A DNA stretch of 64,000 nucleotides, from assembly GCA_049287005.1 (NCBI GenBank), contig JBAQEZ010000003.1:605670-669669 (forward strand). The letters run 5' to 3'. Shown here in pieces: positions 1 through 34,366 of this stretch. Every line of letters begins with the position of its first letter. Position 1 is the first letter of the stretch. Both the position numbers and the translations under genes were made by a program. The DNA comes from Candidatus Moraniibacteriota bacterium. GTDB taxonomy: Bacteria; Patescibacteriota; Minisyncoccia; Moranbacterales; UBA1568. The notes under the pieces were generated by a model, which was not told the origin of the DNA, ran no database searches, and saw only the letters and a list, made by a program, of their open reading frames with translations.

Positions 1-1
1 C

Positions 2-9406: not shown

Positions 9407-9433
9407 GCTGAGGCTCTGGGATGAAGTTGGAAC
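9407..9433 (+). repeat. intercistronic repeat copy A (GCTGAGGCTCTGGGAYGAAGTKGGAAC family)
   Basis: One of five copies at more than 80% identity. It lies 10 nt from the start codon of the 8812..9396 gene. Confidence 0.8.
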
Positions 9434-9459
9434 TTATCTAAATCAGGAGTAATTACATC

Positions 9460-18458: not shown

Positions 18459-19118
18459 ATGGAAAGGCTAACAAAGAAGCAGACAGAGGTGCTCCAGTTT
18501 GTGCAAGATTTTCAAAAGAATCACTTGCACTCACCTTCGCTAAAGGAAATTGCCCATTTTTTTGAAGTAAGCATTCCGACCATTTACCAGCATGTTTCAG
18601 CCCTTGAAAAAAAAGGCTATCTTCTTCGTACAAAAAACAAAAGACGTGATTTTGAAATTGCAGAAACGCCGATCCCTAAGAATGCAATAAAATCCCCTGC
18701 TTTTGAGGCATTCACGGTTCCAATTCTTGGAGCTGCTACTGCTGGTTTTCCAAGAAACTTTGCCGAGGGACATGTAGAAGGATACATCAAAGTTTCTCGT
18801 AGGTTATTAAAACCAAAAAAAGAGCTGTTCGCAGTGAGGATAGATGGCGAATCTATGAACAAGGCCTCTAAGGCAGATGTCCTTCTTGCAAATGGAAACT
18901 TTGCAATTATTGATCCGACAAAAACGAATCCCGAAAACAATACCTATGTGTTATCAGTTATTGACGGTCTAGCAAATATTAAGAAGTTTCAAAGAGATAA
19001 AAATGGGATTCGTCTCATATCAGAATCTACAGAAGGTATTTATAATAAACCTATTCACATATCTAGTAGCGACGAGTATATGGTCAATGGTGAGGTGGTA
19101 GCGGTAATTGAGAAATAA
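18459..19118 (+). CDS. LexA/CI-like repressor (HTH plus S24 peptidase)
   Basis: An N-terminal LexA-type HTH, then a C-terminal VRIDGESM...K S24 Ser-Lys dyad. Confidence 0.8.
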   Translation: MERLTKKQTEVLQFVQDFQKNHLHSPSLKEIAHFFEVSIPTIYQHVSALEKKGYLLRTKNKRRDFEIAETPIPKNAIKSPAFEAFTVPILGAATAGFPRNFAEGHVEGYIKVSRRLLKPKKELFAVRIDGESMNKASKADVLLANGNFAIIDPTKTNPENNTYVLSVIDGLANIKKFQRDKNGIRLISESTEGIYNKPIHISSSDEYMVNGEVVAVIEK

Positions 19119-19125
19119 TTAGGTT

Positions 19126-19902
19126 ATGTCACTAAAATCAAAGAAAGGTCAGAAAAATAGAGACCACGTCAATCTGCTTATTTCTGATCAAAAATTTCAA
19201 GAAGAAATCAGAAAAATAAGGGTAAAGCTTGGTATACCTTCCGAAGGGTTTACTAAAAACGCTGAAATCGAAGCTTGGACTTATAAAGCTGCAGATGAAG
19301 CTGACGAAATTTTTGATTCAGAAGATTTTTGTGAAAATCTTCTGAAGATAGATAAAGATTTTCAAGATCAGAAAATAACCTCTCGCGAGAAGGATAACCT
19401 AAGATATGAGGCACATCTTGTTTTGCCAACAAATTACGAAGCTCATGCTATAAGAGAGATAATTAAAAATTTCAATCTGCCGGAAAACTACGAATTCATG
19501 TTACGGACTTATCTGGTAAACAACAGCACTAACTTTCTTCCTAATAATTTTTCCATATCGTACTCAAAAGATCAAAGGAGTGTTTCTGTAAATATTTACA
19601 CTCGTCTAACCGATGAGGATTTAAGAGAGATTAAAGAATTTGTAAACACTTACCATGGAGATAAGCTCCCCTATATACAGAGCCTAAACAACTTAAGCGA
19701 AAAACTCTCTATAGAAGAATTAGATCGGAAAGCATACGAGGTAGATGCTGTTACCTACAAACCTTATAGACTCACAAATAAAGACATTGCGGAAAGAGTT
19801 CTAGGAGATCCTTCTAGAGGGAATGAGGTTTACGAAGCTAAAAGAGGACTGGAAAGACTGAGAAAGTCACGATTTACCACACGGAAAACTATTGACCAAT
19901 AG
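19126..19902 (+). CDS. hypothetical protein
   Basis: A 258-aa ORF with no family motif that I recognise. Confidence 0.45.
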   Translation: MSLKSKKGQKNRDHVNLLISDQKFQEEIRKIRVKLGIPSEGFTKNAEIEAWTYKAADEADEIFDSEDFCENLLKIDKDFQDQKITSREKDNLRYEAHLVLPTNYEAHAIREIIKNFNLPENYEFMLRTYLVNNSTNFLPNNFSISYSKDQRSVSVNIYTRLTDEDLREIKEFVNTYHGDKLPYIQSLNNLSEKLSIEELDRKAYEVDAVTYKPYRLTNKDIAERVLGDPSRGNEVYEAKRGLERLRKSRFTTRKTIDQ

Positions 19903-19966
19903 TTTTCCGATTATTGACAGTGCTGAGCTTTATACTAAGAACATAATTAATTTTATGTTTTTTAGT

Positions 19967-21250
19967 ATGAAAAAGCTCTCATGGACGACGATCCAAAAAC
20001 GTGTTGATGATCTCATCCCCCAGGAGATCAACCCTCGCAGAATCACTGACAAGCAAATGTCGGATCTCAAGCGAAGTTTGAAAAAATTTAATTTAGTAGA
20101 ATTGCCTGCGTCAGACAGCGACGGAACAATTCTCGCCGGACACCAGCGCATCAAAGCCCTGCAGTTGCTCGGCCGTGGAAAAGAATTGATCGACATCCGG
20201 GTACCGAATCGGAAATTGACCAATCAAGAAGTAAAGGAATACTTGATCGGCTCCAATAAGTTGGGTGGTGATTGGGATTATGATCTCTTGAAAGCCTTTG
20301 ACTTTGAAACTCTTTCCTTTGCGGGTTTCGACGCTATCGAAATCGCAAACTTCTGGGATGAGAAGAATGAGACGAAGGAGGACGCTTTCAATGTCACGGA
20401 AGAGCTCAAAAAAATCAAAGACCCGAAGACAAAACTCGGTGACATTATTCATCTCGGCAAACACAAGATTCTCTGTGGAGATGCGACTGATCCGAAAAAT
20501 CTTGCCCGTCTCTTTGGAGACGAACGAGCTAGCATGATCTACTCGGATCCTGTCTACAATATTTCTATCGATTACGACGGTGGCATTGGCGGAAACAAAG
20601 AATACGGAGGAAACGTGAACGATACTCGTACCTACGAGGAATACCAGCAATTCATAAAGGAGAGCCTTATAGCTGCTCTTTCCGTTTCCCAGTCCGATAC
20701 TCATGTCTTTTACTACTGTGATCAAGTTTACATCGGCCTGATCCAAGACATCTATCGATCGCTTGGCGTTGCGAACAAGCGTGTTTGTTTGTGGCTCAAA
20801 AACTCTCAAAATCCGGTTCCGAAAGTGTATTGTAACAAAGCCTATGAGCCGGCCGTATACGGCACCCGAGGGAAGCCTTATCTTGCCGAATCCATCACTA
20901 ATCTCAACGAGGTGATGAATCGTGAGTTTACTACGGGCAACGACCTGGTATCTCAGGTAGATGATTTTCTCGAAATCTGGACCGCTAAGCGTCTTTCCGC
21001 CAAAGAGTACCAACACGCTACCTCAAAGCCGATCACACTACACGAGAAGGCCATAAAACGCTGTACAAGACCAAACGATATCATTCTGGATAGCTTCCTC
21101 GGCTCTAGTAGCACTCTTCTCGCTGGAGAACAGTTAGGGCGCCGAGTGTACGGATGTGAGCTTGAGCCCCGGTTTTGCGATCTCGGCGCCAACAGGTACG
21201 AGGCTCTCACGGGAATTAAACCGATTATCGAACACTATGAAAAAGAATAA
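19967..21250 (+). CDS. ParB-like nuclease domain fused to an N4/N6 DNA methyltransferase
   Basis: A GHQRIKA ParB-N motif, the SDPVYN (DPPY-type) catalytic motif, and an FLGSSST SAM-binding loop. Confidence 0.8.
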   Translation: MKKLSWTTIQKRVDDLIPQEINPRRITDKQMSDLKRSLKKFNLVELPASDSDGTILAGHQRIKALQLLGRGKELIDIRVPNRKLTNQEVKEYLIGSNKLGGDWDYDLLKAFDFETLSFAGFDAIEIANFWDEKNETKEDAFNVTEELKKIKDPKTKLGDIIHLGKHKILCGDATDPKNLARLFGDERASMIYSDPVYNISIDYDGGIGGNKEYGGNVNDTRTYEEYQQFIKESLIAALSVSQSDTHVFYYCDQVYIGLIQDIYRSLGVANKRVCLWLKNSQNPVPKVYCNKAYEPAVYGTRGKPYLAESITNLNEVMNREFTTGNDLVSQVDDFLEIWTAKRLSAKEYQHATSKPITLHEKAIKRCTRPNDIILDSFLGSSSTLLAGEQLGRRVYGCELEPRFCDLGANRYEALTGIKPIIEHYEKE

Positions 21251-21635
21251 GTACCAAAATCAATTTTTGGAGGAACTGGCACACATTCCCATTATCCAAG
21301 TGGCTTGCGAGAAAACTGGGCTTTCCCGCAATAGCGTGTACCGATGGCGCAAAAAAGATTCCGTCTTTGCCAAAAAAATGGATGAGGCCCTTGCCGATGG
21401 CGTCGCTCTCGTAAACGACATGAGCGAAAGCCAGCTCCTCAATCTGATCAAAGAAAAGAGTTGGCCTGCGATTAGTTTTTGGTTGAGACATAGGAATGAT
21501 AACTACAAAGCAAAGGTACAAATTGATGGTTCCCTAAAGACCATTAGTGAGCTTTCTCCAGATCAAGAAAAGACAGTAAAAGAAGCTCTCAAATTAGCAG
21601 GATTAATTAAAGAAGACTATGAAGAAACTCAATAA
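21237..21635 (+). CDS. terminase small subunit (HTH)
   Basis: Lies immediately upstream of, and overlapping, TerL. It reads IIQVACEKTGLSRNSVYRWRKKD. Confidence 0.5.
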   Translation: MKKNKYQNQFLEELAHIPIIQVACEKTGLSRNSVYRWRKKDSVFAKKMDEALADGVALVNDMSESQLLNLIKEKSWPAISFWLRHRNDNYKAKVQIDGSLKTISELSPDQEKTVKEALKLAGLIKEDYEETQ

Positions 21636-23058
21636 AGAATTACTTGATAGCCTTGTGAAAGATCGTTCCGTTAGGCAAAAAGTAGTGTACGAAAGCCACA
21701 TGATGTTTTTTCTTGTTTACTTCGCACACTACGTTAAATATGAGTTAGCGAACTTTCATGAAGAAATCATTAATATCACGCAAGACAGTAAAAACAAACT
21801 GGCATGTATTGTTGCGTTTCGAGGTTCTGGCAAATCTACTCTGGTGACTACATCATACTCTTTATGGGCTATTCTCGGTCGGCAAGGTAAAAAATTTGTT
21901 CTCATCGTCTGTCAGACGCAAGCACAGGCAAAACAACATATGAGAAATTTACGATCCGAATTAGAAGAAAATAGACTCTTAAAAAGTGACTTGGGACCAT
22001 TCAAAGAAGAACCTGATCTTGAATGGGCTATTTCTTCATTAGTGTTCAGTAATACCGGAGCAAGAATCACCATTGCTTCCTTGGATCAGAGTATCCGCGG
22101 TATGCGACATCGTGAGTATCGTCCCGATCTCATTATTCTCGATGACGTTGAAGATGTGCAATCAGTAAAAACGGTAGAGTCGAGAGATAAAACGTTTGAT
22201 TGGTTTACAAGAGAAATCATCCCTCTCGGAGACCTCAATACGAGAACCATTGTTGTCGGAAATTTGCTACACGAAGATTCTCTTGTTATGAGATTGAGAG
22301 ACAAGATTGAAAATAAAGATATAGAAGGGGTCTATAGACAGTACCCACTTGTAAACCAAGATGGTATCTGTCTCTGGCCTGGAAAGTTTCCTAACAACGA
22401 AAGTCTGGAGTTATTTAGAAAATCAATTGTAAGCGAAACTAGCTGGCAAAGAGAGTATTTACTTCTTGTAGTGCCTGACGATTATCAGATAATTCATAGG
22501 GACTGGATACAACGTTATGATGAATTACCTAAAAATACCAGGTCATACTATGAAGTCATCATTGCCGTTGATCCGGCAATCACTCAAACAGAAAGATCTG
22601 ACTACACTGGGATAGTGTGCGGATTAGTGGTGTTTGAAAAATCAGATTATTATAAACTATATATCTTGCCTAATCCAATAAACGAAAAAATGGACTTTCC
22701 TACACTGGTAGACAGAATTAAGGCATTAGCGGAGGAGATTAAAAGAGATATCTATTATTCAATAGCAATCGTTGTAGAATCCGTGGGCTATCAAGAGGCA
22801 ATCCCTCAACAATTAAGACGAGAGGGTTTCGACAACTGTGAAGCGGTTAAACCAACGTCGGATAAAAGATCAAGACTGGCAGTAGTCAGTCATAGAATAA
22901 AAAATGGAGACATTTTATTTCCTAAGCAAGGAGCAGAAAACCTCATAAATCAAATTGTAAATTTAGGTAATGAAAAACACGACGATCTTGCTGATGCGTT
23001 TGTTATGTGCGCACAAAAGCATTCATCTTATACTGTACAGTATATAGGGTTTGCCTGA
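21619..23058 (+). CDS. terminase large subunit
   Basis: A Walker A motif AFRGSGKST, a Walker B motif LIILDDVED, and a C-terminal RNaseH-like nuclease region (AVDPAITQTERSDYTGIV). Confidence 0.8.
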   Translation: MKKLNKELLDSLVKDRSVRQKVVYESHMMFFLVYFAHYVKYELANFHEEIINITQDSKNKLACIVAFRGSGKSTLVTTSYSLWAILGRQGKKFVLIVCQTQAQAKQHMRNLRSELEENRLLKSDLGPFKEEPDLEWAISSLVFSNTGARITIASLDQSIRGMRHREYRPDLIILDDVEDVQSVKTVESRDKTFDWFTREIIPLGDLNTRTIVVGNLLHEDSLVMRLRDKIENKDIEGVYRQYPLVNQDGICLWPGKFPNNESLELFRKSIVSETSWQREYLLLVVPDDYQIIHRDWIQRYDELPKNTRSYYEVIIAVDPAITQTERSDYTGIVCGLVVFEKSDYYKLYILPNPINEKMDFPTLVDRIKALAEEIKRDIYYSIAIVVESVGYQEAIPQQLRREGFDNCEAVKPTSDKRSRLAVVSHRIKNGDILFPKQGAENLINQIVNLGNEKHDDLADAFVMCAQKHSSYTVQYIGFA

Positions 23059-23254
23059 TTTTTAAGAATCAAGAAAATATTTTCAAAATTCATTAGTTAG
23101 TATAGTGATAGAGCCTATAACAACGATATTATCTACTACTCCGATTATGTTGATGTGGGCTAGCAAAAGAGCTCGATTTTAGCTAAAAAAGTTGTCAACA
23201 AGTTGTCAACGATTGCCTCCTTTACTTCCCCCACCAGTCTGTCATTAATGAAGT

Positions 23255-24610
23255 ATGGATAATAGCTATATTTCAGCCCTCATTGGTCAACCAGCAGTAA
23301 TTCCGACAGTAAAGGTTAGGTACTGCCTCTATGCCAGAAAGTCTACCGAACAGGACGAAAAACAAGCCCTTTCCATTGAGTCGCAAGTGAAAGAAATGCT
23401 CGCTATCGCCGAAAGAGAAAATCTCGACATCATAGACATACGAAGAGAGGCGCATTCAGCTAAAGCTTCTGGACAACGGCCAGTCTTCAAGGAAATACTC
23501 GCCGATGTGCGAAGAGAACGGTTCAATGGAATCCTTGTTTGGCATCCTGATAGATTGAGCAGAAATGCGGGAGATCTTGGTTCGGTTGTAGATCTTATGG
23601 ATGAGCAATTGCTAGTGCAAATACGGACGTACGGACAGGCATTTACGAATACACCGAGCGAGAAGTTTCTCCTTATGATTCTATGCAGTCAGGCAAAACT
23701 CGAGAATGACAACAAGAGTATTAACGTAAAACGTGGACTCAGGACAAGGGTCGAGATGGGGTTATGGCCCGCCCCTGCCCCAACTGGCTACTTCAAAGAA
23801 AAGAGAATGGATCGCAAATGCGAAACGCTTATTGATCCAGATCGAGCACCAATCATAAAGCAAATGTTTGAAAAAGTGGCTTATGAAAAATGGAGTGGTC
23901 GGAAAGTTTATAATTGGCTGAAATTTGATCTCAATTTCAAAACAGCGGGTGGGAATAAGAATCTGACATTGAGTAACGTCTATATATTATTGCAAAATCA
24001 CTTCTATTATGGGACTTTCGAGTACCCGAAAAAGTCGGGAAACTGGTATCAGGGTAGACATGAACCGATTATTAGCAAAGAACTATTTGACCAAGTCCAA
24101 GCACAGGTAAAGAGCCATATACTGAGAACGCAAGAACCAAAAGAATTTGCCTTTACCAAACTGATGACTTGTGGACTTTGCGGATCTGGGATATCTGCTG
24201 ACGAAAAGTTTAAAAAGCTAAAAGATGGTTCAGCGAATAGACATGTCTATTACGGTTGTAGCAAATCCAAAGACAGAAATTGCAAACGAATTTATATTAA
24301 TGAATCAGATTTGATTAAACAACTTGAAATGCTTCTTGATAAAATAAGCATTGACGAAATTGGAATAGTAGAAAAAATAAAGTATGAAGTCGAAAGAATG
24401 AAGAAATTTCAACAATCTATTCTAAATATAAAACAAGAGGTACAAATAAAAGACGTAGACATCAGAGACTACGTTAAATTCATTTTGAAAGACGGATCAA
24501 TTGAAGAAAAGCGAGAATTACTAACTTGTCTCAAAAGTCGACTCATCCTTACAAAAGAGAAGAAATTAATTCTCAGGAAATATGAAACCACCATAGAAAA
24601 CAATATTTGA
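23255..24610 (+). CDS. large serine recombinase (phage-type integrase/resolvase family)
   Basis: A catalytic domain YARKSTEQ...VWHPDRLSRN, a recombinase domain, and a zinc ribbon CGLCGSG...YYGCSK. Confidence 0.85.
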   Translation: MDNSYISALIGQPAVIPTVKVRYCLYARKSTEQDEKQALSIESQVKEMLAIAERENLDIIDIRREAHSAKASGQRPVFKEILADVRRERFNGILVWHPDRLSRNAGDLGSVVDLMDEQLLVQIRTYGQAFTNTPSEKFLLMILCSQAKLENDNKSINVKRGLRTRVEMGLWPAPAPTGYFKEKRMDRKCETLIDPDRAPIIKQMFEKVAYEKWSGRKVYNWLKFDLNFKTAGGNKNLTLSNVYILLQNHFYYGTFEYPKKSGNWYQGRHEPIISKELFDQVQAQVKSHILRTQEPKEFAFTKLMTCGLCGSGISADEKFKKLKDGSANRHVYYGCSKSKDRNCKRIYINESDLIKQLEMLLDKISIDEIGIVEKIKYEVERMKKFQQSILNIKQEVQIKDVDIRDYVKFILKDGSIEEKRELLTCLKSRLILTKEKKLILRKYETTIENNI

Positions 24611-24862: not shown

Positions 24863-25678
24863 ATGTTCAACAATAAACCGCTTATATGTACGGCCTGTGG
24901 CTATGTCGGAAAACCACAGAGAATTACAAAGGGAAATACTTTAATCGAATTAATTCTCTGGCTATGCTTCCTGGTCCCTGGACTAATTTATTCAATCTGG
25001 AGACTGTCTTCGAAGTATGATGCTTGTCCGAAATGCAAGGGATCTTCTATGATCCCAACAGATAGTCCTGTTGGACAAAAAGTGATTAACGAACAAAAAA
25101 ATACTCTCGGAACAGACCCTGTTGAAACGTACAAAACAGAGAGTCAAAAAGAGACCGCTAAAAATACAAAGTTGGCCACGATAGTAATCGGAAGTGTTAT
25201 TGTGATGGTATCTATTTCAGCATACATTGGACAAAATAATGCAAAAAATGAACCACAAAATACCACCGTTCAACCAGTAGTGCAAACTTCCCAACCCACG
25301 TTTGATGTTCCAGCTCTGTTAGGAAAAAATATAGATGAAATTCGAAAAATTCTTGGAAAACCAACCGAAAAAAACATTGAAGCTCCTAAGGATATTCTCG
25401 ACAAGCAAAAAATGCTCGGCAATAGCTACGTTATGCAGACCTGGGATAACACTTTTGAATCCAATGGATTAAGAATAGATGTTGAATTCTATATAAAAAA
25501 TCGTTCCGTCAAAGAATTCTTCATTGAGGCTAATGATCCGTCTGGTATTACCAAAGACAAACAACGACTTCTTCTTATTGGCAACCTTAATGAAAAAGAT
25601 CCGCGATACTCAGTTGAATTTGTCAAAGCTAAGGTAGACCCAACTTCGTTTACTGGAATAATTATTTCTCCAAAATAA
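24863..25678 (+). CDS. hypothetical membrane protein with an N-terminal zinc ribbon
   Basis: CTACG...CPKC flanks a TM helix, and a second TM lies mid-protein. Confidence 0.5.
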   Translation: MFNNKPLICTACGYVGKPQRITKGNTLIELILWLCFLVPGLIYSIWRLSSKYDACPKCKGSSMIPTDSPVGQKVINEQKNTLGTDPVETYKTESQKETAKNTKLATIVIGSVIVMVSISAYIGQNNAKNEPQNTTVQPVVQTSQPTFDVPALLGKNIDEIRKILGKPTEKNIEAPKDILDKQKMLGNSYVMQTWDNTFESNGLRIDVEFYIKNRSVKEFFIEANDPSGITKDKQRLLLIGNLNEKDPRYSVEFVKAKVDPTSFTGIIISPK

Positions 25679-25893: not shown

Positions 25894-26376
25894 TCACTCC
25901 AACTCTTTACTCATTTTTTCAAATCCTTTTCTATCTAAGTATTCACTAAGATCATAACGATGCCCGCCCTTTATCTCCCTGAAATCGAAAGCTTCTTTTT
26001 TCTGTGGATTCACCCATAAATAGTAACTATACCTGCCACCACCCTTAGTTTCGTGTAGTATTTTATGATTTAGTGATAATTTGCAAATCTCTTTCGTTGG
26101 GATCGTGATGGTATGTGGTTCAATATATCTCCTTCCTGTTTCCTCTGATTGCTCAATGACATAAATTAAAAAAATAAAGTAGTCTGCAGTGGCTTTCTGA
26201 ACGACATCTTTATGAAGAAAAAACCAACCACCGGAACCTTCACCAAAACTTTTCGACTCGCTTTTCTTTGGTTCATAGGCTTTGCTCCCTTTTACTTGAA
26301 TTGAAATAATTTTTTTATTTCTAACATTCATCAACACAAGATCAATTCCTTTCATTTGGGCATTGATAGGCATCAA
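25894..26376 (-). CDS. hypothetical protein (possible PD-(D/E)XK-like D...IQVK)
   Basis: A 160-aa ORF with GIDLVLMN...ISIQVKGSK. Confidence 0.4.
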   Translation of the reverse strand: MMPINAQMKGIDLVLMNVRNKKIISIQVKGSKAYEPKKSESKSFGEGSGGWFFLHKDVVQKATADYFIFLIYVIEQSEETGRRYIEPHTITIPTKEICKLSLNHKILHETKGGGRYSYYLWVNPQKKEAFDFREIKGGHRYDLSEYLDRKGFEKMSKELE

Positions 26377-26525: not shown

Positions 26526-26864
26526 TCAGGTATTTCTCATCATATCTAGAGTTAATTGTTTTTTTATTTTCTCCCAATCTCCCTCTGAGAAATTATATCC
26601 AGTTTTAAATCCTACCCAACAGATATCGTTAAGATGCTTATAATAACCATTTTGCTTTTCAACCATCTCCCACCATTTTTCATCGTTACCTAACAAATGC
26701 TTTGATGGATGAGCTGCTATTGCTTTATTATAATTTTGTGTTGTAATATTTCTCCATTCATCTTTAATTGTCGGATATTGTAACGCAACAGCTGCTTTCT
26801 TTAGATCTGCTGATCCTATCTTGACTTGATCAATGGAAAATATTTTTTTAAACACATCCCACAT
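26526..26864 (-). CDS. hypothetical protein
   Basis: A 112-aa ORF downstream of the AAA gene. Confidence 0.45.
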   Translation of the reverse strand: MWDVFKKIFSIDQVKIGSADLKKAAVALQYPTIKDEWRNITTQNYNKAIAAHPSKHLLGNDEKWWEMVEKQNGYYKHLNDICWVGFKTGYNFSEGDWEKIKKQLTLDMMRNT

Positions 26865-26883
26865 AATTTATATAATTTGCCAG

Positions 26884-27975
26884 TTATTTTCTTTCCATAT
26901 TTACAAATTGATCAAAGTATTCAATATCCTCCACTGAAATTGATGGGTTAAATTTATTGATTGCTTCAACTAGCATTTTCTCATCAACCATATTTTTATT
27001 TTGAGACACGGCAGCGCGAGCTGCCTCTGTGACAATCAGTTCAATATCTGATCCCACATAATTCTCTGACATTTTTGCAAGTTTTTCAAAATCAATGTCA
27101 TTATCATATGGTCGACCAGAGAGACAAATTTTAAACATATCTCTCCTTGCTTTAAAATCAGGCGGTCCAATATAAATTCGCTTGTCCATTCTACCTGATC
27201 GGAGTATGGCTGTATCAATCATATGTGGCCTATTTGTTGCTCCAACAACTAAAATCTTATTCTGACCAGCATTATTAAGTTGAAGCAAGAACTCATTTAT
27301 TTCTTCTTTTTTAATATCAGCCGAGGCGCTTAACTCTTCTCTTTTTGGTACAAGCCCTTCGATTTCGTCAATAAACACAATTGATGGTGCTTGCAGCTTT
27401 GCCATTTCAAAAACTTTACCAATATTACCTACCGCGCCGTGAACATAGGAGGTTGCAACAGAAGAAGGGGCCATCTCGATAAAGTTATACCCGAGTTCCT
27501 CTGCTAATTTTTTAACAATAAATGTTTTGCCGCATCCCGGAGGTCCAAAAAGTAATATACCATTCGGGATGCCGAGCTTGAATTTTATATACTTCTCCGG
27601 ATTCAACAATGGCTCTATCACCTCATTGATCAAAAGGTTTTTCAGAGATTCCATACCAGCGACACAATCAAAGCCACGCAAGACAGTAAGATCATCTATG
27701 ACGTCACCGATCTTTTCATTTGCGTGTTCATCTGTAATAACACAAAGGTGTTTTTTTCCTCCATGATTAATTGTAATCAAATCGTATTTTTTTGCGCGGT
27801 CAACAACTTCCTCTGGTTGTATATTAGTAAAAAGATAAAGATATTTTCCATTAGAAAGTACATACACTTCCGTAAAAAAGACTCGTTCAATGCGGCTCGT
27901 AACTGTGATGTCATCTCTTATTTTGAAGCCATTATGCAAAATTGGCTTTGTAGGTGTCGCCATATTTTTATTCAC
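26884..27975 (-). CDS. AAA+ ATPase (classic AAA clade with a single AAA domain)
   Basis: A Walker A motif GPPGCGKT, a Walker B motif IVFIDEIEG, and a second region of homology with an arginine finger (GATNRPHMIDTAILRSGRMD). Confidence 0.85.
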   Translation of the reverse strand: MNKNMATPTKPILHNGFKIRDDITVTSRIERVFFTEVYVLSNGKYLYLFTNIQPEEVVDRAKKYDLITINHGGKKHLCVITDEHANEKIGDVIDDLTVLRGFDCVAGMESLKNLLINEVIEPLLNPEKYIKFKLGIPNGILLFGPPGCGKTFIVKKLAEELGYNFIEMAPSSVATSYVHGAVGNIGKVFEMAKLQAPSIVFIDEIEGLVPKREELSASADIKKEEINEFLLQLNNAGQNKILVVGATNRPHMIDTAILRSGRMDKRIYIGPPDFKARRDMFKICLSGRPYDNDIDFEKLAKMSENYVGSDIELIVTEAARAAVSQNKNMVDEKMLVEAINKFNPSISVEDIEYFDQFVNMERK

Positions 27976-28576
27976 CAGAAATTATGAGTAAAAGAAATAT
28001 TATTACAATGATTATTGCTACAGTAGCTCGTATGAAACCTATTTTCTCATGCGTTACGGTGAAGTGGCCATCCTTGTCCCAAGTAGTAGCACCTTCTTTA
28101 TTCAAATAACTATATGCGGATGAAAGCGTGAAGAGACTAACAATAGGGATACCGAGACCAAGACCCCTAAACCAAACTGCAAAACTACGATTCAGTGCTT
28201 TGGAAAATTCAAGTTTACTGCCTTCAGGACTCTTGAGATTAACTCGAAGGAGCCATTTACCCGGAGTTGTTCCCCATGTATTTAGAAGAGCAGCCTCTGC
28301 AAATATCCAGACAAAGAGTATAAGTAAAGTTAAAAACGTATCTGAGGTTTCTAAAAGCGATGGTATAAAAATACCTAAAAAGACACCAAAGATAAGTGAA
28401 AAAACAATAACATCTAGAGATCTAGCCCAATACCGTATCCATGGACGAACCGTAGTTACTGAATCGGGATTTGATTTTTTCTCATCAACCCGCCCTTCAA
28501 CTACTGGCTTTGTAATTGGATCTTTCTTGTCTAAAAAATCAAGATCTATATCTAATTTTTTTAATGGTTCTGACAT
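27968..28576 (-). CDS. RDD-family-like polytopic membrane protein with an N-terminal LDIDLDFLDKKD motif
   Basis: RPWIRYWARSLD plus three TM helices. It shares its N-terminal motif with the next gene. Confidence 0.55.
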   Translation of the reverse strand: MSEPLKKLDIDLDFLDKKDPITKPVVEGRVDEKKSNPDSVTTVRPWIRYWARSLDVIVFSLIFGVFLGIFIPSLLETSDTFLTLLILFVWIFAEAALLNTWGTTPGKWLLRVNLKSPEGSKLEFSKALNRSFAVWFRGLGLGIPIVSLFTLSSAYSYLNKEGATTWDKDGHFTVTHEKIGFIRATVAIIIVIIFLLLIISGE

Positions 28577-28584
28577 ACAATTTT

Positions 28585-29208
28585 TTAATACCTCTTGGTG
28601 CAGTTAGCTGCCAAATAATTATTTCGTTTTTGAACTTGGGCGTTATAACGATCAATTCTTGTGTTCGTGTCCGCTACAGCTCGTTTATAGGCTGGGAGTT
28701 TCGAGTTATAGGCATCTACCGCTGCATTATATTGATTAATTTGATACTGTGAAGAATATTCATTCACATTAGAACCATCTATTTCTCTTTTTAAGCGTTC
28801 TAATTCGTTTGTTTGGTTCTCCAAAGTGTTTTGTGCTAATGCTATTTGTGATTCGTTTTCATCGGGATTAAGTATATCTGCTTGATTGGAATGATCTCGT
28901 GAACAGCTATACTGGCCAACTATCACATCATTTCCGGTAGTACTTGTGGTTGAAACAGTAGAAGGAGAGGTGTTGTTTGTTGTGTTCGAACTACTGCTGT
29001 CATCAGAAAATAGTGCCCATCCAAAAAAAAGAATAACTCCACCAATGATCAGAATATTTTTCCAGTTATACTTATGGCTGGCTAATATCGAAGTAGGAGC
29101 ACTAGAAGTCTGTCCAGTGTTGAAATCCGGTTTAGGTGTGACTATAAGCGAGTCCTTCTTATCAAGAAATCCTAAGTCAATATCAAGATGATCTTTCGAG
29201 TCTTTCAT
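28585..29208 (-). CDS. single-pass membrane protein with an N-terminal LDIDLGFLDKKD motif and a coiled-coil ectodomain
   Basis: Reads HLDIDLGFLDKKDSL, then a TM helix, a Ser/Thr-rich linker, and a Q/N-rich coiled coil. Confidence 0.5.
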   Translation of the reverse strand: MKDSKDHLDIDLGFLDKKDSLIVTPKPDFNTGQTSSAPTSILASHKYNWKNILIIGGVILFFGWALFSDDSSSSNTTNNTSPSTVSTTSTTGNDVIVGQYSCSRDHSNQADILNPDENESQIALAQNTLENQTNELERLKREIDGSNVNEYSSQYQINQYNAAVDAYNSKLPAYKRAVADTNTRIDRYNAQVQKRNNYLAANCTKRY

Positions 29209-29214
29209 ATATTA

Positions 29215-30861
29215 TTATTTTTCCCGATTATCATAACAAGCCTGCACAAGCGCTGGTAAAACAACTGCGTTAGGAGCTGACATTGGGATGGTAGAGAATT
29301 GCTGACTCTTCCCATCCTTATCCACCCACAGAATTACTGAGCCTTGATCAAATTTTGGAATGTATATAGTATCTGTCCAATAAACCATTAGTTTCTCATT
29401 TTTACCAAATAATTTAAATTGAATCTTTGAATACCCTTGTTTTGTAAACTCCACCTCACCAATTTTTACAGCTTCTCCGCGACTAAAAATCTGATCAACA
29501 ATTCTTTTAATAATAAGAGGTTCAATTAAGCTGGATGCTAGTCCAACTAGTTGTGCCCAACTATCTTTTGCTTTACTCTCTTCCCTGCTCGCAGAGAGAG
29601 ACAGTGAGATATTTTCTTTTTCAGAAGTGGCTGACCATCTGTAGACGTACGAAGTGGAAACTGGTACACCATAGACCCTTGACGTTGTTGCGGTTGAATC
29701 AAAAGAGATGTTTAGTACGTCTTTAAAAAAAATTCTTTTATCATTGTATTCGAGAAAGCTGTTTTTAAACACAACAGTGCCACTTCGGAATGTTCCAGGG
29801 ATCTCTATGGCGAGAGAATTCTCGATGTCATCAGAAATATTCTTTTTAATCTGTTCAAGTTCGCCATGCAGTTTATTTTTTAAACTTTCAGTACCAGCAA
29901 GTTTAATCGCCACTTCTAGAAGGCCTTGAGATTTGTTAAGTTCACTTAAGTTATTATGCAAGTCAAGAATGATAGATCGCAAGGCGTTAGCCGCACGATC
30001 GCGCATAATCTTAGTTTGACTATCTTCGTATAGACCGAGGTCAATCAGTTTATTTAGTTCTAGTGAGATTGAAGCGACAAGTTGTTTGATTGTTTGTGAT
30101 TCCTCTTTATCAAATTTCCCATCCTTGCTTACCTCCATTTTTTCAAGTCCCTCAACGGCCTGACTAATTGCTTGATAAGCCGGTCCCAAAACGCTCTTTT
30201 CTATCTTCTCGCCTTTTACTGAGAAAACTTTTTGAAACTCATTAATGTAGTCACTATTTTTATGAATGTGGTGCAGCTCTGTATATATATCTGACAGGTA
30301 TTCCACTACGTGCTTTCTGAAATCAGAAATAATATCCTCACTGGCCGTTTGTTCATCATGAAGTTTGTAAATCTTAGAAAAAGAGTTCCAGAACTTATCC
30401 GAATCGACAAGTTCTTTCCATGCAACCAAGGAATTCTGTAGGTATTCCTTATTGTCTTCTGCTGAAAGTATCAGACAATACAAAATAGCAAGATTTTTTT
30501 TGTAAAAGAAGGCTTTTGTGTTTTGACCTTCTGATGCATCTTGCCAAGTTCCAACAGCATTCAAATAGTCTTTGAGCTTAAACAAGCCCAACACTTGTTC
30601 ATCCACTCCATCTGCGATCTGAAACCAAAAAAAGTATTCCCTGATTCGTTTTTTAGGAGCTTGGAGTCGCTGTAAGGCATCTTTGACTGCATTCTCAGTT
30701 CTGAAATCTTCAAACAAACCTAAGTCTGTATCGTAGTCAGGAGTATCTTCAGCTCTGAGACGATTAACAATCTCTTTTGAGCGCTTTAAAATATCTCTTT
30801 CACTGACCGACGTATCCAGTCCAAGGATATGGTAAGAATTATTTTTAAGTGTAAGTGACAT
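29215..30861 (-). CDS. J-domain-like protein (HPD replaced by TPD) with a long helical C-terminal region
   Basis: N-terminal SYHILGLDTSVSERDILKRSKEIVNRLRAEDTPDYD aligns with the DnaJ sequence YYEILGV...AYRKLAMKYHPD. Confidence 0.5.
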   Translation of the reverse strand: MSLTLKNNSYHILGLDTSVSERDILKRSKEIVNRLRAEDTPDYDTDLGLFEDFRTENAVKDALQRLQAPKKRIREYFFWFQIADGVDEQVLGLFKLKDYLNAVGTWQDASEGQNTKAFFYKKNLAILYCLILSAEDNKEYLQNSLVAWKELVDSDKFWNSFSKIYKLHDEQTASEDIISDFRKHVVEYLSDIYTELHHIHKNSDYINEFQKVFSVKGEKIEKSVLGPAYQAISQAVEGLEKMEVSKDGKFDKEESQTIKQLVASISLELNKLIDLGLYEDSQTKIMRDRAANALRSIILDLHNNLSELNKSQGLLEVAIKLAGTESLKNKLHGELEQIKKNISDDIENSLAIEIPGTFRSGTVVFKNSFLEYNDKRIFFKDVLNISFDSTATTSRVYGVPVSTSYVYRWSATSEKENISLSLSASREESKAKDSWAQLVGLASSLIEPLIIKRIVDQIFSRGEAVKIGEVEFTKQGYSKIQFKLFGKNEKLMVYWTDTIYIPKFDQGSVILWVDKDGKSQQFSTIPMSAPNAVVLPALVQACYDNREK

Positions 30862-30866
30862 ATTAT

Positions 30867-33380
30867 TTATCGTGTAATACCCGAAAGTTTATTTCTCATT
30901 GTTTCCTGTTCATCAGATGGCAGTAGCAACAATAAGTTGTGAACGCAGCGCTTTAACTCGTCAACATCACCAAGCTCTATTGCGCGTCTGCCTTTCTCGG
31001 TATAATAACCAGCTTCCTTTTCATTGATAAATTTCTTATTACCATCGGTAAGTTGACTGAATTGATAGGCCCATGTTGCCGGATTAGAAAACAAAGCCTT
31101 GCCACCAAGTTCCTTGATTTGCTCGTTTACTCGGACCAGGAGAGCTTTATCATTTTCTGCTATAGCCTTTTCTCCTTCTTCTTTCATTTTTTTGAGATGC
31201 TCCTCGTGCTGTACTTTGTCTTTATCATCACCAAGTTCAGTGATAATTGTTTGGGTAGTTTCTGTGCTCTCTTTAAATTCTTTAAGCAACTGGGGCATCT
31301 CTTTTTCCTTTTCAAGTCGATCAATAGCTATTTTTAAATCCTTAAGTTGTTTGTTTGCCTTAAGCTTCTCGTCTTCGTCAATATGCGCGTTCCTCAAGCT
31401 GTTTGCTACCGAATTGATCGTGTTATTAAGTCTATTCTTTTCCTCAGTAGAACAGTTTTCAGAAACAGACCGTGCTCTTTCAGTTTGTATATTTAAATCA
31501 TATTCAATAGTCTTAACTTCTAGAGTTTCATCTTGCGCTGTAGAACGAGCCTTGAGGGTGAGGTCAACCAAAGGAATATAAGCGGTCACAAAGACTTCGC
31601 GCGACTCATTCATTTCGACAGTCAATTCCAATGGAGTTCCTTCTGGTAGATCATGAGGTAAATCCTTGCCATTAACGCCTAGCTCACAAAGATAGGTGTT
31701 GCGATCAGGGATCTCGGACTCGCCCTCAACCAAGGTAATATCCAATTTGCCTTCTTCATTTTTCCTTAGTTTTCTGGAAGTTTTTAAATCAGTTAGGACT
31801 TTCTTAATAGGAAGTATAGATCCCTTGTCGAAAATCTTCTCACAAACGTTTGTTGCAATATTCCGAATATGATCCTTTTTAGCTACAATTACACCAACCG
31901 AATGAGGCAATGGTGCACCGGATACTGATAGCCCCTGGGTAATAGAAAATGAGTCAGGATCAACCAAAACAGAATTGCCGTCTTTGTCAAAAAGGTAAAT
32001 CCAATAGACGTTTGGCTTGCCTGGTTCGACAGCAACCGTATCAAAAAATTTGCCACTCTTTAACTTGATTTTTGAACCATTATAAAATCCGCTGTCTGAT
32101 TGAATTTGTATATAATATTCTTCTTCGGAATCTTTAATATCCTCTATGACACCACTGATTGTTTCTTCGGTATCGGAAGTCAGAGATTCATAATTCAGAT
32201 TGATAGACATTGTCCCTTTTTTGAGTTTCTGAGGGTCATTTTCTATGAGTTCCTTCGGAATCTTTTGTCCAATTCCAAATACACAAGCACCTCTTGCAAC
32301 GACTGTGAGAGGGTCAACAGACGCATCTGCGATTATTTTAAGTTCGCTTTCTATTCTTTCACGAATGTATGGGATTTGAGTTGGTCCGCCAACGAGAATT
32401 ACCTTTGCAACAGAACTATTCTTAATACCAGCATCTTTCAATGTCTCCTTCGAAAGCTCAATGGTGCGATCAACCATTGGTTTGATTAGTTTTTCAAATT
32501 CTTTCCTCGTAAAATCAATGGTAAGAAAAACCTCTTTGCATTCATTGTCATTCCCGATGTTCTCTACTACGATTGATGTTTTTTCGTATTCGGAAAGTTC
32601 AATTTTAGCCCTCTCAGCAAAGAATTTCAATTGGGAAAAAATACCGCGGTATTTTTCATTGCCTCTATTGAAATTATTAATTGAAAATTTCTCTAAAATC
32701 TTTGGCACTATTACTTTGTCAACAATCTCCAAATCAAAGTTCTTACCACCAAGAAAATTGTCACCGTTATGACCAAGCACTGAAAGTGCTCTATCTTTGG
32801 AAGCTATCAAAGCTACGTCAAATGTGCCTCCACCAAAATCATAAATGAGCCAATTTTCATTCTTGGTGTTTGTGAAACCATAAGCAATAGCAGCGGCTAT
32901 CGGCTCTTGTAATAGTATTACGTGTTTAAATCCGGCAAGATTTCCAGCACGCTTTGTTGCTTCAGACTGTAAAACCGAAAAAGCAGCTGGAACCGTGATT
33001 ACGGCAGCTACGGTATTGAAGTCTGTATATTTTCTTAAAATGTCCTCTTTTAGACTTTTAAGGATCTCAGCCGAAATTTCTTCCGGCCCCATTTCTATAC
33101 CAGCTCTCTCAAAATAAAAAGTTTCCGAAGTGCCCATCAGCCTTTTAACTTCGGGTTTGTAGTTTTTTATCTCATCTTCAGATGCGTCCTTATAAAAATT
33201 CTCATAAGCCTTCTGACCAACCACTTTATTCTTTGATTTATCAAAACCAAACACAGACGGCGTATATTCAACACCGCCAGGTTTTTTGACGATTTCAATA
33301 TTGCCGTTATTGTTTATAGCAATAGATGAGTTTGTTGTACCCAGATCTATGCCTATTTGAATACTTTGTTGACTGGCCAT
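30867..33380 (-). CDS. atypical Hsp70-family ATPase (DnaK-like NBD plus a roughly 460-aa non-canonical C-terminal region)
   Basis: Carries [25 protein letters not shown] and ILVGGPTQIPYI. The C-terminus lacks a DnaK-type substrate-binding domain. Confidence 0.8.
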   Translation of the reverse strand: MASQQSIQIGIDLGTTNSSIAINNNGNIEIVKKPGGVEYTPSVFGFDKSKNKVVGQKAYENFYKDASEDEIKNYKPEVKRLMGTSETFYFERAGIEMGPEEISAEILKSLKEDILRKYTDFNTVAAVITVPAAFSVLQSEATKRAGNLAGFKHVILLQEPIAAAIAYGFTNTKNENWLIYDFGGGTFDVALIASKDRALSVLGHNGDNFLGGKNFDLEIVDKVIVPKILEKFSINNFNRGNEKYRGIFSQLKFFAERAKIELSEYEKTSIVVENIGNDNECKEVFLTIDFTRKEFEKLIKPMVDRTIELSKETLKDAGIKNSSVAKVILVGGPTQIPYIRERIESELKIIADASVDPLTVVARGACVFGIGQKIPKELIENDPQKLKKGTMSINLNYESLTSDTEETISGVIEDIKDSEEEYYIQIQSDSGFYNGSKIKLKSGKFFDTVAVEPGKPNVYWIYLFDKDGNSVLVDPDSFSITQGLSVSGAPLPHSVGVIVAKKDHIRNIATNVCEKIFDKGSILPIKKVLTDLKTSRKLRKNEEGKLDITLVEGESEIPDRNTYLCELGVNGKDLPHDLPEGTPLELTVEMNESREVFVTAYIPLVDLTLKARSTAQDETLEVKTIEYDLNIQTERARSVSENCSTEEKNRLNNTINSVANSLRNAHIDEDEKLKANKQLKDLKIAIDRLEKEKEMPQLLKEFKESTETTQTIITELGDDKDKVQHEEHLKKMKEEGEKAIAENDKALLVRVNEQIKELGGKALFSNPATWAYQFSQLTDGNKKFINEKEAGYYTEKGRRAIELGDVDELKRCVHNLLLLLPSDEQETMRNKLSGITR

Positions 33381-33392
33381 AGTAACAGCAGA

Positions 33393-33920
33393 TTAATTAT
33401 TGCTAAGTAGAATTATTTTAGCCTTTCGAACAACCTGACCTTTACACATAATAGTTGGCTCCACGGTTTCTTTTATTGTTGGCTCCAAAAGAGAGGCGTC
33501 TTTTTCCACAGATAGAATATCGAGATTAAGTCCCTCATTATATTTTTGGTTCTTATAGTCAATAATTTTGATGTCGTACTTTTCAAGATATCGCATTAAC
33601 TTTTGCACAGAATTTTCTAAGCCCTTCATTTGGTTTTCAGGCAAACTCGAAGCCGATTTAGCTATACGCTGTTCAATGCGCCATACTTCAACGGCAAGAT
33701 CAATTAAATCATTTACACCAATGGATAACTCGATAAATTTAGGCGCTACAGCAAACTTGATTTCTTCTTTTATTTTTAAATAAACGTCATTAATTTTGTT
33801 GATCTCACTTTTTTTAGTTAAATATGCAAGTAGATAAAGGATAACAATTAAGGTTGCGGCTATAAATAAAAATAGGAAGGGAATTGAATAATTTAAATTC
33901 GCTATCATTGAATTAGTCAT
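33393..33920 (-). CDS. membrane-anchored GrpE-like nucleotide-exchange-factor candidate
   Basis: An N-terminal TM helix. The C-terminal stretch KYDIKIIDYKNQKYNEGLNLDILS...EPTIMCKGQVVRKAKIIL aligns with the host GrpE sequence ...TIEAKEGETFDPSIHEAL...VVQKGYKFGDRVIRPAKVIV. Confidence 0.45.
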   Translation of the reverse strand: MTNSMIANLNYSIPFLFLFIAATLIVILYLLAYLTKKSEINKINDVYLKIKEEIKFAVAPKFIELSIGVNDLIDLAVEVWRIEQRIAKSASSLPENQMKGLENSVQKLMRYLEKYDIKIIDYKNQKYNEGLNLDILSVEKDASLLEPTIKETVEPTIMCKGQVVRKAKIILLSNN

Positions 33921-34119
33921 GATTTTTATGTTTAATGAATTTCAATAAATCGTCTTTTCGATATCTTCGATCTCCTCTAGTACCGAATCGGATTGCTTTC
34001 AAAATTCCCTTATTATCCCAATTCCGGAGCGTGTTTGGGTGGCAATTCAATACTTCACACGCCTCTTGAAGCGTCAAGATTTCTGGATATTCCTCGATTT
34101 TCTTCGGTTGAGTCTTCAT
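33913..34119 (-). CDS. excisionase/AlpA-family HTH DNA-binding protein
   Basis: LTLQEACEVLNCHPNTLRNW...FGTRGDRRY. It lies adjacent to the tRNA-Gln attachment site. Confidence 0.6.
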   Translation of the reverse strand: MKTQPKKIEEYPEILTLQEACEVLNCHPNTLRNWDNKGILKAIRFGTRGDRRYRKDDLLKFIKHKNHD

Positions 34120-34292: not shown

Positions 34293-34366
34293 TGGCTGGG
34301 GTGCTAGGATTCGAACCTAGGGTCATGGGACCAGAACCCATTGCCTTACCGCTTGGCCACACCCCA
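34293..34366 (-). tRNA. tRNA-Gln(CUG)
   Basis: The reverse-complement reads UGGGGUG-UG-GCC-AAGCGGUAA-GGC-A-AUGGG-UUCUGGU-CCCAU-GACC-CUAGG-UUCGAAU-CCUAG-CACCCCA-G-CCA. It has a U1-A72 pair and an encoded CCA, as in bacterial tRNA-Gln. Confidence 0.9.

Follow-up and report, generated by a model that had tools for sequence, protein, structure and literature searches.

An island-borne operon for a divergent Hsp70, with its own partner proteins and membrane proteins that share an N-terminal peptide, in a Candidatus Moraniibacteriota genome

Within a 64,000-nucleotide (nt) stretch of contig JBAQEZ010000003.1 (positions 605,670 to 669,669, forward strand; Candidatus Moraniibacteriota bacterium, assembly GCA_049287005.1), hereafter called the window, eight tightly packed open reading frames (ORFs) run along the minus strand from position 34119 down to 26526, with intergenic distances of -8 to +19 nt. 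An earlier reading made from the sequence alone (the sequence-only reading) had described an operon of seven genes here, centered on a second, divergent Hsp70. All seven ORFs are present with the boundaries then proposed, but they are preceded by an eighth gene, encoding a helix-turn-helix (HTH) protein. From the first gene to the last, the operon contains the following features (lengths in amino acids, aa):

33913 to 34119, minus strand: HTH protein (excisionase/MerR-like), first gene, with an 8-nt overlap with the GrpE-like gene
33393 to 33920, minus strand: GrpE-like nucleotide-exchange factor, 175 aa, matching Pfam GrpE
30867 to 33380, minus strand: atypical Hsp70, 837 aa, matching Pfam HSP70
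29215 to 30861, minus strand: J-like adaptor, 548 aa, with remote J-domain profile matches
28585 to 29208, minus strand: tagged single-pass membrane protein, 207 aa, identified from its translation and from homologues with the same tag
27968 to 28576, minus strand: tagged RDD-family membrane protein, 202 aa, matching Pfam RDD
26884 to 27975, minus strand: classic-clade AAA ATPase, 363 aa from a GTG start, matching Pfam AAA and AAA_lid_3
26526 to 26864, minus strand: 112-aa ORF 3' of the AAA gene, co-directional, with no family match

The HTH protein matched Pfam HTH_17 (1.7e-12) and MerR_1 (2.7e-8) and scored 32.4 bits against the NCBIfam excise domain (cut-off, 28.8); in four related loci (L001 to L003 and L064), an XRE-type HTH occupies the first position in its place. 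At the other end of the operon, the 112-aa ORF had no tblastn match in any of the 64 related loci considered below. Since it has no relative there, it probably lies outside the system, and the earlier inclusion of this small ORF as a member was not borne out. In most loci, the AAA gene is followed by a gene for a DUF6804 protein of ~103 aa with three transmembrane (TM) helices (e.g., L001:13367-13681 and L060:13007-13315). This gene is absent from the window, where the unrelated 112-aa ORF takes its place.

The arrangement recurs well beyond this genome. A pattern scan of one genome per species (185,579 species genomes) yielded 54 loci, although the pattern had been built on 13 sequences and is biased to close relatives. 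Among bacteria, the scan reached many phyla of the candidate phyla radiation (CPR), Omnitrophota, Bdellovibrionales, Alpha- and Gammaproteobacteria, Bacteroidota and Thermodesulfobacteriota; among archaea, it reached Woesearchaeota and Nanoarchaeota (DPANN) as well as Thaumarchaeota. Over the related loci (L001 to L064), the conserved order is that of a small HTH gene, genes for the GrpE-like protein (~174 aa), the Hsp70 (~837 aa) and the J-like protein, one or more membrane protein genes, the AAA gene (~359 aa) and the DUF6804 gene. ORF calling combined with BLASTP in 60 loci showed three proteins together almost everywhere: the J-like protein, the AAA protein and an Hsp70 whose C-terminal half is specific to the system. 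The conservation of gene neighborhood that the sequence-only reading had proposed to look for was thus found, with the same order in distant bacterial and archaeal lineages. Copies in metagenome-assembled genomes (MAGs) of Moraniibacteriota, Omnitrophota and Bdellovibrionales share ~80% identity, a level that, across phyla, implies recent transfer. The host also has a standard hrcA-grpE-dnaK operon at 47.4 to 50.8 kb, just as first described (DnaK, 845 bits over its full length; GrpE, 128 bits; HrcA, C-terminal domain). The view of the operon as an additional Hsp70 module of horizontal origin that brings along a nucleotide-exchange factor (NEF) of its own, a J-like protein without the HPD tripeptide, an AAA protein and tagged membrane partners, was upheld.

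The nucleotide-binding domain (NBD) of the Hsp70 is canonical: it matched Pfam HSP70 (PF00012) with 259.3 bits over residues 9 to 368, the LVGGPTQIP motif is present, and both E159 and DFGGGTFD are invariant among 77 family sequences, so that the catalytic motifs are intact. The whole protein, by contrast, scored far below the NCBIfam equivalog cut-offs for DnaK (TIGR02350; 266 versus 822.55 bits), NF001413 (265 versus 648 bits) and HscA (TIGR01991; 215 to 225 bits versus cut-offs of 620 to 708.55), and its assignment as a DnaK, HscA or YegD equivalog was rejected. An AlphaFold2 (AF2) model (pLDDT, 80.6), from which the domain order was read, suggests the following layout:

Residues 1 to 380 (nt 32241 to 33380): NBD
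Residues 381 to 402: linker, predicted to be disordered
Residues 405 to 480 (nt 31941 to 32168): inserted small beta domain
Residues 495 to 614 (nt 31539 to 31898): divergent beta part of a substrate-binding domain (SBD-beta), eight strands
Residues 622 to 830 (nt 30891 to 31517): helical lid plus extra helical bundle

The C-terminal region had initially been taken to be unlike the substrate-binding domain (SBD) of DnaK, and this part of the description of the Hsp70 did not survive. When the model was searched with Foldseek, DnaK structures comprising both NBD and SBD came out on top (E, 1e-37 to 1e-34; 640 to 790 aligned columns), with NBD-only entries lower (E, 1e-29; ~372 columns); hhalign aligned residues 8 to 602 with residues 5 to 483 of the host DnaK, in agreement with a weak BLASTP segment. 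As modeled, then, the Hsp70 carries a divergent SBD-beta and lid behind an inserted domain, followed by an extra helical bundle. That this SBD is very divergent follows from the outcome of a plain sequence search, as phmmer with the C-terminal half against the Protein Data Bank (PDB) returned nothing significant. Three further features stand out. First, no VLLLD-like run, of the kind found in the hydrophobic DVLLLD-type interdomain linker, follows the NBD in the segment from residue 381 to residue 402. Second, the positions equivalent to R167 and N170 of DnaK are V/I155 and Q158, respectively, across the 77 family sequences; in DnaK, R167 contacts the aspartate of HPD at the DnaK-DnaJ interface. 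Third, the extreme C-terminus, ending in LSGITR (residues 830 to 837; nt 30867 to 30890), is invariant or nearly so in the 77 members and disordered in the AF2 model. By analogy, this tail looks like a short linear docking motif, with a logic as in EEVD.

The 548-aa protein encoded next to the Hsp70 matched no entry in the family libraries scanned (Pfam, PADLOC, NCBIfam and PHROGs), yet it has many relatives (476 in clusters at 90% identity; 644 clusters at 50% identity), among which the first ~340 residues are conserved and the C-terminus is exchanged. A MAG of Candidatus Moraniibacteriota encodes a protein 100% identical to it. An AF2 model with a pLDDT of 88.4, read together with profile and structure searches, divides it as follows:

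Residues 1 to 80 (nt 30622 to 30861): J-like four-helix domain without HPD
Residues 85 to 348 (nt 29818 to 30609): helical solenoid resembling tetratricopeptide repeats (TPR) or 14-3-3 proteins
Residues 350 to 544 (nt 29230 to 29814): two pleckstrin homology (PH)-like beta-plus-helix modules, replaced in relatives

A profile of the first ~92 residues, made from 40 diverse members, retrieved J domains from the PDB in 22 of its 24 matches (best E, 0.003), and the modeled helices (residues 9 to 12, 21 to 36, 56 to 67 and 69 to 77) follow the order of a J domain, with a 19-residue loop between helices II and III. Pfam DnaJ (PF00226) did not match the window protein at an E of ≤0.1, nor did it match any of the 40 plus 46 members scanned. 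On the strength of the profile, the N-terminus is probably a remote J-domain homologue, and one that lacks HPD: the tripeptide is absent from all 40 aligned members. Here, the sequence-only reading proved half right. Remote similarity to J domains and the missing HPD were both recovered, but the TPD that it had placed at the HPD position is neither a substitute for HPD nor a family feature. The family consensus of the II-III loop is K-I-[DG]-[DE]-x-P-x-Y-D-x-D, in which only P41, Y43, D46 and R54 are conserved; as P41 is the only conserved residue of T40-P41-D42, the TPD of the window protein is a coincidence, and the hidden Markov model alignment sets HPD opposite the K-I-D of the family, which corresponds to R36-A37-E38 in the window protein. 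The loss of both HPD and the R167 equivalent points to a co-evolved, non-canonical contact between the J-like protein and the Hsp70.

No match at an E of ≤0.001 was obtained when the whole J-like model was compared with the PDB by Foldseek; weaker matches were to 14-3-3 and Tom70 and to the tandem PH domains of Rtt106 (E, 0.03; probability value up to 1.0). Longer relatives carry TPR repeats or zinc ribbons as additions at the C-terminus; the C-terminal domains seen are interaction modules only, and enzymatic domains were not seen among the 86 members scanned.

Upstream of the Hsp70 gene, the GrpE-like protein matched Pfam GrpE (PF01025) with 34.8 bits (gathering score, 25.8), its residues 33 to 170 covering profile positions 34 to 162 out of 165, and 26 of 32 relatives from other loci matched GrpE as well (E, ≤0.01). 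It is, by this profile evidence, a real but remote GrpE homologue, the remoteness being apparent from the failure of the family profile to find GrpE among PDB sequences. The homology and the membrane anchor that had been claimed for it hold; the proposed C-terminal alignment with the host GrpE is limited, in pairwise BLASTP and hhalign comparisons, to the final ~10 to 15 residues, i.e., the last strand. The TM anchor spans residues ~12 to 34 (nt 33819 to 33887) and leads into the GrpE domain (residues 33 to 170; nt 33411 to 33824). An N-terminal TM helix followed by basic residues occurs in nearly all bacterial copies, and by the positive-inside rule, the basic residues after the helix would leave the GrpE domain on the cytoplasmic side; the helix is absent from archaeal copies. 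The gene is present in most loci and missing upstream in the readable alphaproteobacterial copies (L058).

For the last conserved gene of the window's operon, the sequence-only reading had proposed a classic single-domain AAA+ ATPase, and every hallmark is there: a single module matching Pfam AAA (PF00004) with 116.6 bits and AAA_lid_3 with 43.5 bits, with Walker A (GPPGCGKT), Walker B (IVFIDEIE) and the second region of homology (ATNRP...RSGRMD). Its closest relatives in the PDB are the D2 modules of Cdc48/VAT/p97, at ~140 bits per module. Translation likely begins at the ATG at 27963, for a length of 359 aa that agrees with the relatives, and the protein divides into two parts:

nt 27676 to 27963: family-specific N domain, ~100 aa
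nt 26941 to 27675: AAA module plus lid

The N domain is strongly conserved within the family, and a profile of it found no match in the PDB. The AAA protein also matched PADLOC IetA profiles (1.2e-35), but with NCBIfam IteA_antiphage it reached 113.3 bits against a cut-off of 510. Since it falls far short of that cut-off and since the operon contains no IetS-type protease, identity with the IetAS system (IetA AAA plus IetS protease) was rejected; the AAA protein resembles IetA as any classic AAA module would.

Between the J-like and AAA genes lie the two membrane proteins, for which a shared N-terminal start, LDIDL[DG]FLDKKD, had been noticed at the outset. The 207-aa protein carries this tag as LDIDLGFLD (nt 29161 to 29187), followed by a TM helix at residues ~50 to 70, a linker rich in Ser/Thr and a coiled coil that contains two cysteines and is predicted to be extracellular. 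Its matches are weak and of coiled-coil type only, and homologues with the same tag are found in most related loci. The 202-aa protein, with about four TM helices, matched Pfam RDD (PF06271) with 58.3 bits (cut-off, 24.1) and carries the tag as LDIDLDFLD (nt 28529 to 28555). It is an optional component, present in a minority of loci, with tagged RDD copies in L004, L008, L040, L042 and L061. When all six frames of the window were searched with a relaxed regular expression for the tag, two sites only were found, namely those in the 207-aa and 202-aa proteins. A relaxed expression, applied to the 64 related loci, extended the earlier observation considerably: the tag is present in 43 of the 47 ORFs that lie between the J-like gene and the AAA gene, versus 4 of 946 other ORFs, and all 4 of these occupy the corresponding position on contigs that break off ahead of the AAA gene. 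Among the 41 distinct versions of the tag (for example, SKDHLDIDLGFLDKKD), the consensus is K-x-[HK]-L-[DN]-[FI]-D-L-[DE]-F-L-D-[KE]. The proteins bearing it belong to different families: the single-pass coiled-coil type, RDD proteins, Yip1-domain proteins (234 to 238 aa) and longer single-pass proteins.

Some lineages do without the tag. In the archaeal loci L025, L026, L032 and L055, neither a TM anchor on GrpE nor a tagged membrane protein is found; in the Saccharibacteria loci (L045 to L048), the J-like protein is longer (~615 aa), a tagged protein is missing and an untagged protein with five or six TM helices follows the AAA gene. As these lineages keep the core, the core machine must also function without membrane partners. 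A crude comparison of tag-bearing with tag-less lineages showed conservation specific to the former to be largest in the J-like solenoid (residues 241 to 300) and nearly absent in SBD-beta, a contrast that is confounded by phylogeny and gives a weak lead only.

Taken together, these observations lead us, with moderate confidence, to read the operon as a self-contained, horizontally mobile and specialized Hsp70 machine at the cytoplasmic face of the membrane. In such a machine, the shared N-terminal peptide would act as a cytoplasm-facing docking or client motif, analogous to LPPVK of IscU, to EEVD or to the motifs recognized by p97. The 548-aa protein would be the targeting factor, its J-like domain docking on the Hsp70 through the co-evolved interface suggested above and its solenoid most likely reading either the tag or the invariant tail of the Hsp70. 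Short linear motifs of an acidic or hydrophobic kind, EEVD for instance, are typical ligands of TPR-type solenoids, which makes the solenoid the leading candidate reader of one or the other. The membrane-tethered GrpE would reset the Hsp70 locally, and a hexamer of the AAA protein would provide the force for unfolding or extraction. The net activity may be an ATP-driven control of the assembly state, insertion or extraction, or turnover of the tagged proteins, or of proteins that these recruit.

Several observations weigh against this reading. The archaeal and Saccharibacteria versions and one Bacteroidota version come without a tagged membrane protein, and the archaeal GrpE-like proteins have no TM helix. 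Without HPD and the R167 equivalent, the J-like domain may give no ATPase stimulation, and the disordered, linker-less segment behind the NBD means that allostery may differ. Receptors for the tag could be the solenoid, the SBD, the AAA N domain or the Hsp70 tail. Nothing recognizable as a toxin or a nuclease effector is present, and defense genes, while found among the neighbors of the operon, are not overwhelming there and are mostly methylases. Finally, the AF2 models were built on shallow alignments (65 to 89% identity), and some MAG contigs may owe their taxonomic assignment to mis-binning.

In agreement with the earlier statement that no recognized chaperone or defense module matches the operon, the same gene set is undescribed in PADLOC (2023), NCBIfam, PHROGs and the literature searched; the three libraries gave only generic matches to Hsp70 NBDs and AAA modules. 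The characterized prokaryotic Hsp70 types are DnaK, HscA and HscC, next to many uncharacterized "DnaK derivates" (PMC8215388, PMC13580251), and at the plasma membrane, HscC is partnered by J proteins that have a membrane anchor (PMC8215388). The HscA-HscB-IscU and HscC-DjlB/DjlC systems resemble the operon in placing a divergent Hsp70 paralogue with a dedicated co-chaperone beside DnaK, and they have dedicated clients known by a short motif (LPPVK in IscU). However, HscA and HscC need no GrpE, whereas the operon encodes a membrane-tethered GrpE of its own; HPD is retained in their J proteins but lacking in the J-like protein of the operon; and they have no AAA partner, tagged membrane proteins, inserted beta domain or 200-aa helical extension, all of which are found here.

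The pairing of an Hsp70 with a ring AAA unfoldase is shared with Hsp70-ClpB/Hsp104, and the AAA module itself is nearest to D2 of Cdc48/VAT/p97; p97 is recruited to membrane adaptors via short linear motifs. Unlike ClpB and Cdc48, the operon's AAA protein consists of one module behind a novel N domain, without an M domain or double ring, ubiquitin or proteasome partners are lacking, and the Hsp70-AAA pairing is fixed within one mobile operon. An alternative reading takes the cassette to be mobile proteostasis or stress-tolerance cargo, in which Hsp70 and AAA would form a bi-chaperone, acting as a disaggregase or in membrane-protein quality control for chaperone-poor hosts, following the logic of Hsp70-ClpB and of the heat-resistance loci borne by mobile genetic elements. 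The core parts do come from genuine chaperone families and keep their catalytic motifs intact, CPR and DPANN lineages with reduced genomes commonly have the cassette, and the core persists in archaea without membrane partners. We nevertheless regard this reading as unlikely, given that the host already owns hrcA-grpE-dnaK, that the loss of HPD and R167 and the dedicated tagged partners would be unexpected in a generalist, that the AAA protein is a single ~359-aa module without a ClpB-type M domain, and that the distribution is patchy (54 loci in 185,579 species genomes, in a scan biased to close relatives).

A further comparison is with mitochondria. Their PAM motor combines, at the membrane, mtHsp70, Mge1/GrpE, Pam18, the HPD-less J-like Pam16 and Tim44, and it shares with the operon an Hsp70, a GrpE-type NEF and an HPD-less J-like subunit. 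In the operon, in contrast, an HPD-bearing partner and homologues of Tim44 or Tim23 are missing, the NEF is itself anchored and an AAA protein is present. A PAM-like translocation motor, made up of the tethered NEF, the HPD-less J-like protein and the Hsp70, with RDD or Yip1 proteins as the channel and the AAA protein adding force, would nevertheless account for the anchor on GrpE, for a J-like domain without HPD as in Pam16, for the putative docking tag on the polytopic membrane proteins of the operon and for the enrichment of the cassette in episymbiotic CPR and DPANN genomes in the scan. It would leave the motor without an active, HPD-bearing J partner, and the commonest membrane partner is a single-pass protein and no channel; moreover, archaeal copies lack both anchor and membrane partners, and neither secretion nor uptake genes were linked among the neighbors scanned. 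We consider this explanation very improbable.

Two conflict-related systems with Hsp70 components were compared as well. The predicted GAP1-N2 GTPase conflict systems, known mainly from Actinobacteria and Firmicutes, have accessory HSP70, GrpE and DnaJ-FNIII proteins (Kaur et al. 2020, PMC7159879) and are thus similar to the operon in joining Hsp70 and GrpE genes with a J-domain fusion protein. They are, however, defined by GTPases and lack AAA and tagged membrane proteins; with no GTPase or FNIII domain in the operon or its conserved neighborhood, identity with these systems was rejected. The Hsp70-like CnuD of CoCoNuT systems is linked to McrB-like GTPase/McrC-N (DUF2357) genes and has degenerate Walker motifs (PMC11090510). 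Here, no McrBC genes are linked and the NBD motifs are intact, and this identity was rejected, too.

The genomic setting of the operon was described from the start as a low-GC mobile region, and this stands, given the GC contrast, a serine recombinase gene within the island and an adjoining tRNA gene. On the operon side, the GC content is 0.34 to 0.39, versus 0.46 to 0.54 for 34 to 64 kb, with a step at ~34 kb; the island, at ~8 to 34 kb, also encodes a Shedu SduA-like protein and a LexA-like repressor. The features around the operon that bear on its mobility are as follows:

34293 to 34366, minus strand: tRNA-Gln(CTG), found with ARAGORN; context and no component of the system
19892 to 21250, plus strand: N6/N4 DNA methylase (Pfam N6_N4_Mtase, 2.2e-29)
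21619 to 23058, plus strand: terminase-large-subunit-like gene (Pfam Terminase_6C, 5e-11)
23255 to 24610, plus strand: large serine recombinase, identified from its translation

The tRNA-Gln gene marks the edge of the low-GC island, 173 nt from the HTH gene, and is likely the site of island integration; no att duplicate of the tRNA turned up when one was searched for. In a scan for promoters and terminators, sites were no more numerous than in shuffled sequences.

Some further observations on the island can be recorded. The LexA-like repressor, methylase, terminase-like and recombinase genes stand in one row (window positions 18459 to 24610). The gene for the Shedu SduA-like defense nuclease lies on the minus strand at 16434 to 17861 (Pfam SduA_C, 5.1e-16; PADLOC SduA, 6e-16). 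In the distal part of the island, a 43-nt direct repeat occurs between small minus-strand genes in five copies (9398 to 9440, 10215 to 10257, 10550 to 10592, 12162 to 12204 and 12893 to 12935) that are 72 to 100% identical and have the core GCTGAGGCTCTGGGATGAAGTTGGAACTTATTTA. Between the operon and the recombinase lie a 160-aa ORF (25894 to 26376, minus strand) with faint similarity to Mrr_cat_2/DUF4365 (E, 0.05 to 0.06) and an ORF for a 271-aa zinc-ribbon/TM protein (24863 to 25678, plus strand); neither recurs in the related loci. A second low-GC stretch (0.37) covers window positions 1 to 2000 and is separated from the main island by a segment with a GC content of 0.43 to 0.52.

Genes of the same kinds accompany the operon elsewhere. 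When the island proteins of the window were searched with tblastn near the operon in the 64 related loci, the serine recombinase was found in 19, the methylase in 9 and the terminase-like protein in 8, and L064 repeats the methylase-terminase-recombinase order of the window. The commonest families among 142 neighbor proteins from ~47 non-redundant loci were large serine recombinases (8), DNA methylases (~7), tyrosine integrases (3), Fic/SoFic proteins (3), UvrD-type helicases (3), terminases (2) and TraG/HerA proteins (2). In L061, a tyrosine integrase gene adjoins the operon, which stands at the margin of a block containing a phage-type amidase gene (Amidase_2, upstream). The recurrence of methylase, terminase-like and recombinase genes beside the operon suggests that CPR bacteria harbor prophage- or satellite-like elements that form a family. 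A pattern scan of IMG/VR gave one contig (L060) in which the operon was confirmed; on the same contig, genes for an OLD-family TOPRIM protein and a UvrD helicase (a Gabija-like pair) and for a Cas4/DUF2779 nuclease are located directly upstream (L060:103-5589), and a trypsin-like peptidase gene is located downstream (L060:13379-14662). The phage or satellite origin entertained in the sequence-only reading therefore gains from the recombinase, methylase and terminase-like counts and the IMG/VR contig, but it loses from the annotated collections, as a tblastn search with the J-like protein of 50,697 phage and 72,556 plasmid records gave no match.

If the operon belongs to phage- or satellite-like elements, it might simply serve their life cycle, as a chaperone for remodeling of replication complexes, virion assembly or the timing of lysis, with the coiled-coil protein associated with spanins or holins. 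The recurring terminase-like and serine recombinase genes, the Amidase_2 gene of L061, the single IMG/VR contig and a weak match of the 207-aa protein to an Rz-like spanin PHROG (E, 0.002) would all fit. Set against them are the 50,697 sequenced phage genomes without a match, the confirmation of just a single relative in the IMG/VR scan and the lack of any capsid, portal or tail gene among the neighbors scanned. The operon is also found beside tyrosine integrase, Fic or efflux genes, with no phage genes in the available flanks. A role of this kind strikes us as highly improbable.

A further explanation places the cassette in chaperone-guarded abortive infection or exclusion. The tagged membrane proteins would be latent effectors, damaging the membrane or blocking entry, that are continuously held or extracted by the Hsp70 and AAA proteins via the tag and released when a phage titrates or inhibits the chaperones, or when a phage protein is sensed by the J-like protein through its variable C-terminus, much like the chaperone addiction of toxin-antitoxin-chaperone systems. 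This would agree with the "moron" position of the cassette, att-proximal on prophage-like integrative elements, with neighbors that include Shedu-like, SoFic, Gabija-like and restriction-modification methylase genes, with the swapping of membrane partners and J-like C-termini, which recalls the modularity of sensors and effectors in conflict systems, and with the recent transfer implied by the ~80% identity between Moraniibacteriota, Omnitrophota and Bdellovibrionales. On the other hand, the PADLOC match is limited to the generic likeness of the AAA protein to IetA, the core is kept in lineages without a tagged membrane protein, and no toxins are known among RDD, Yip1 or single-pass coiled-coil proteins. 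We see it as possible, albeit on the doubtful side.

Returning to the specialized Hsp70 machine at the membrane that we favor, its biological role is most likely conflict-related, e.g., in exclusion or in an abortive-infection-type control of membrane effectors, because the cassette is att-proximal on integrative, terminase-encoding elements among defense genes; this is the least certain step of the interpretation. In its boldest form, which we put forward tentatively and regard as rather unlikely, the operon would represent a fourth prokaryotic Hsp70 type, carried on prophage-like elements through CPR bacteria, DPANN and other lineages, in which the Hsp70, the tethered GrpE, the HPD-less J/TPR adaptor and the Cdc48-like AAA protein build a machine close to the membrane. 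It would be addressed by an N-terminal peptide code on interchangeable membrane proteins and act as a chaperone-gated membrane effector system in conflict with phages or between elements, or as a translocation motor that converged on PAM.

The components of the operon are all, judged by their sequences, from known superfamilies. What is unusual is the tag code, the joint loss of HPD and R167, the AAA partner and the spread over both prokaryotic domains. If our reading is true, one of the "DnaK derivates" gains a full set of partners, comprising a NEF, an adaptor, an AAA motor and clients with a tag of 9 to 13 residues, and the mechanistic question is raised of how an Hsp70 is driven that lacks both the HPD partner and the R167 contact. 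The tag would be a defined peptide code, open to direct test or use. In CPR and DPANN, lineages whose defense and host-interaction biology is almost unknown, the cassette would, moreover, be a cargo that mobile elements carry widely.

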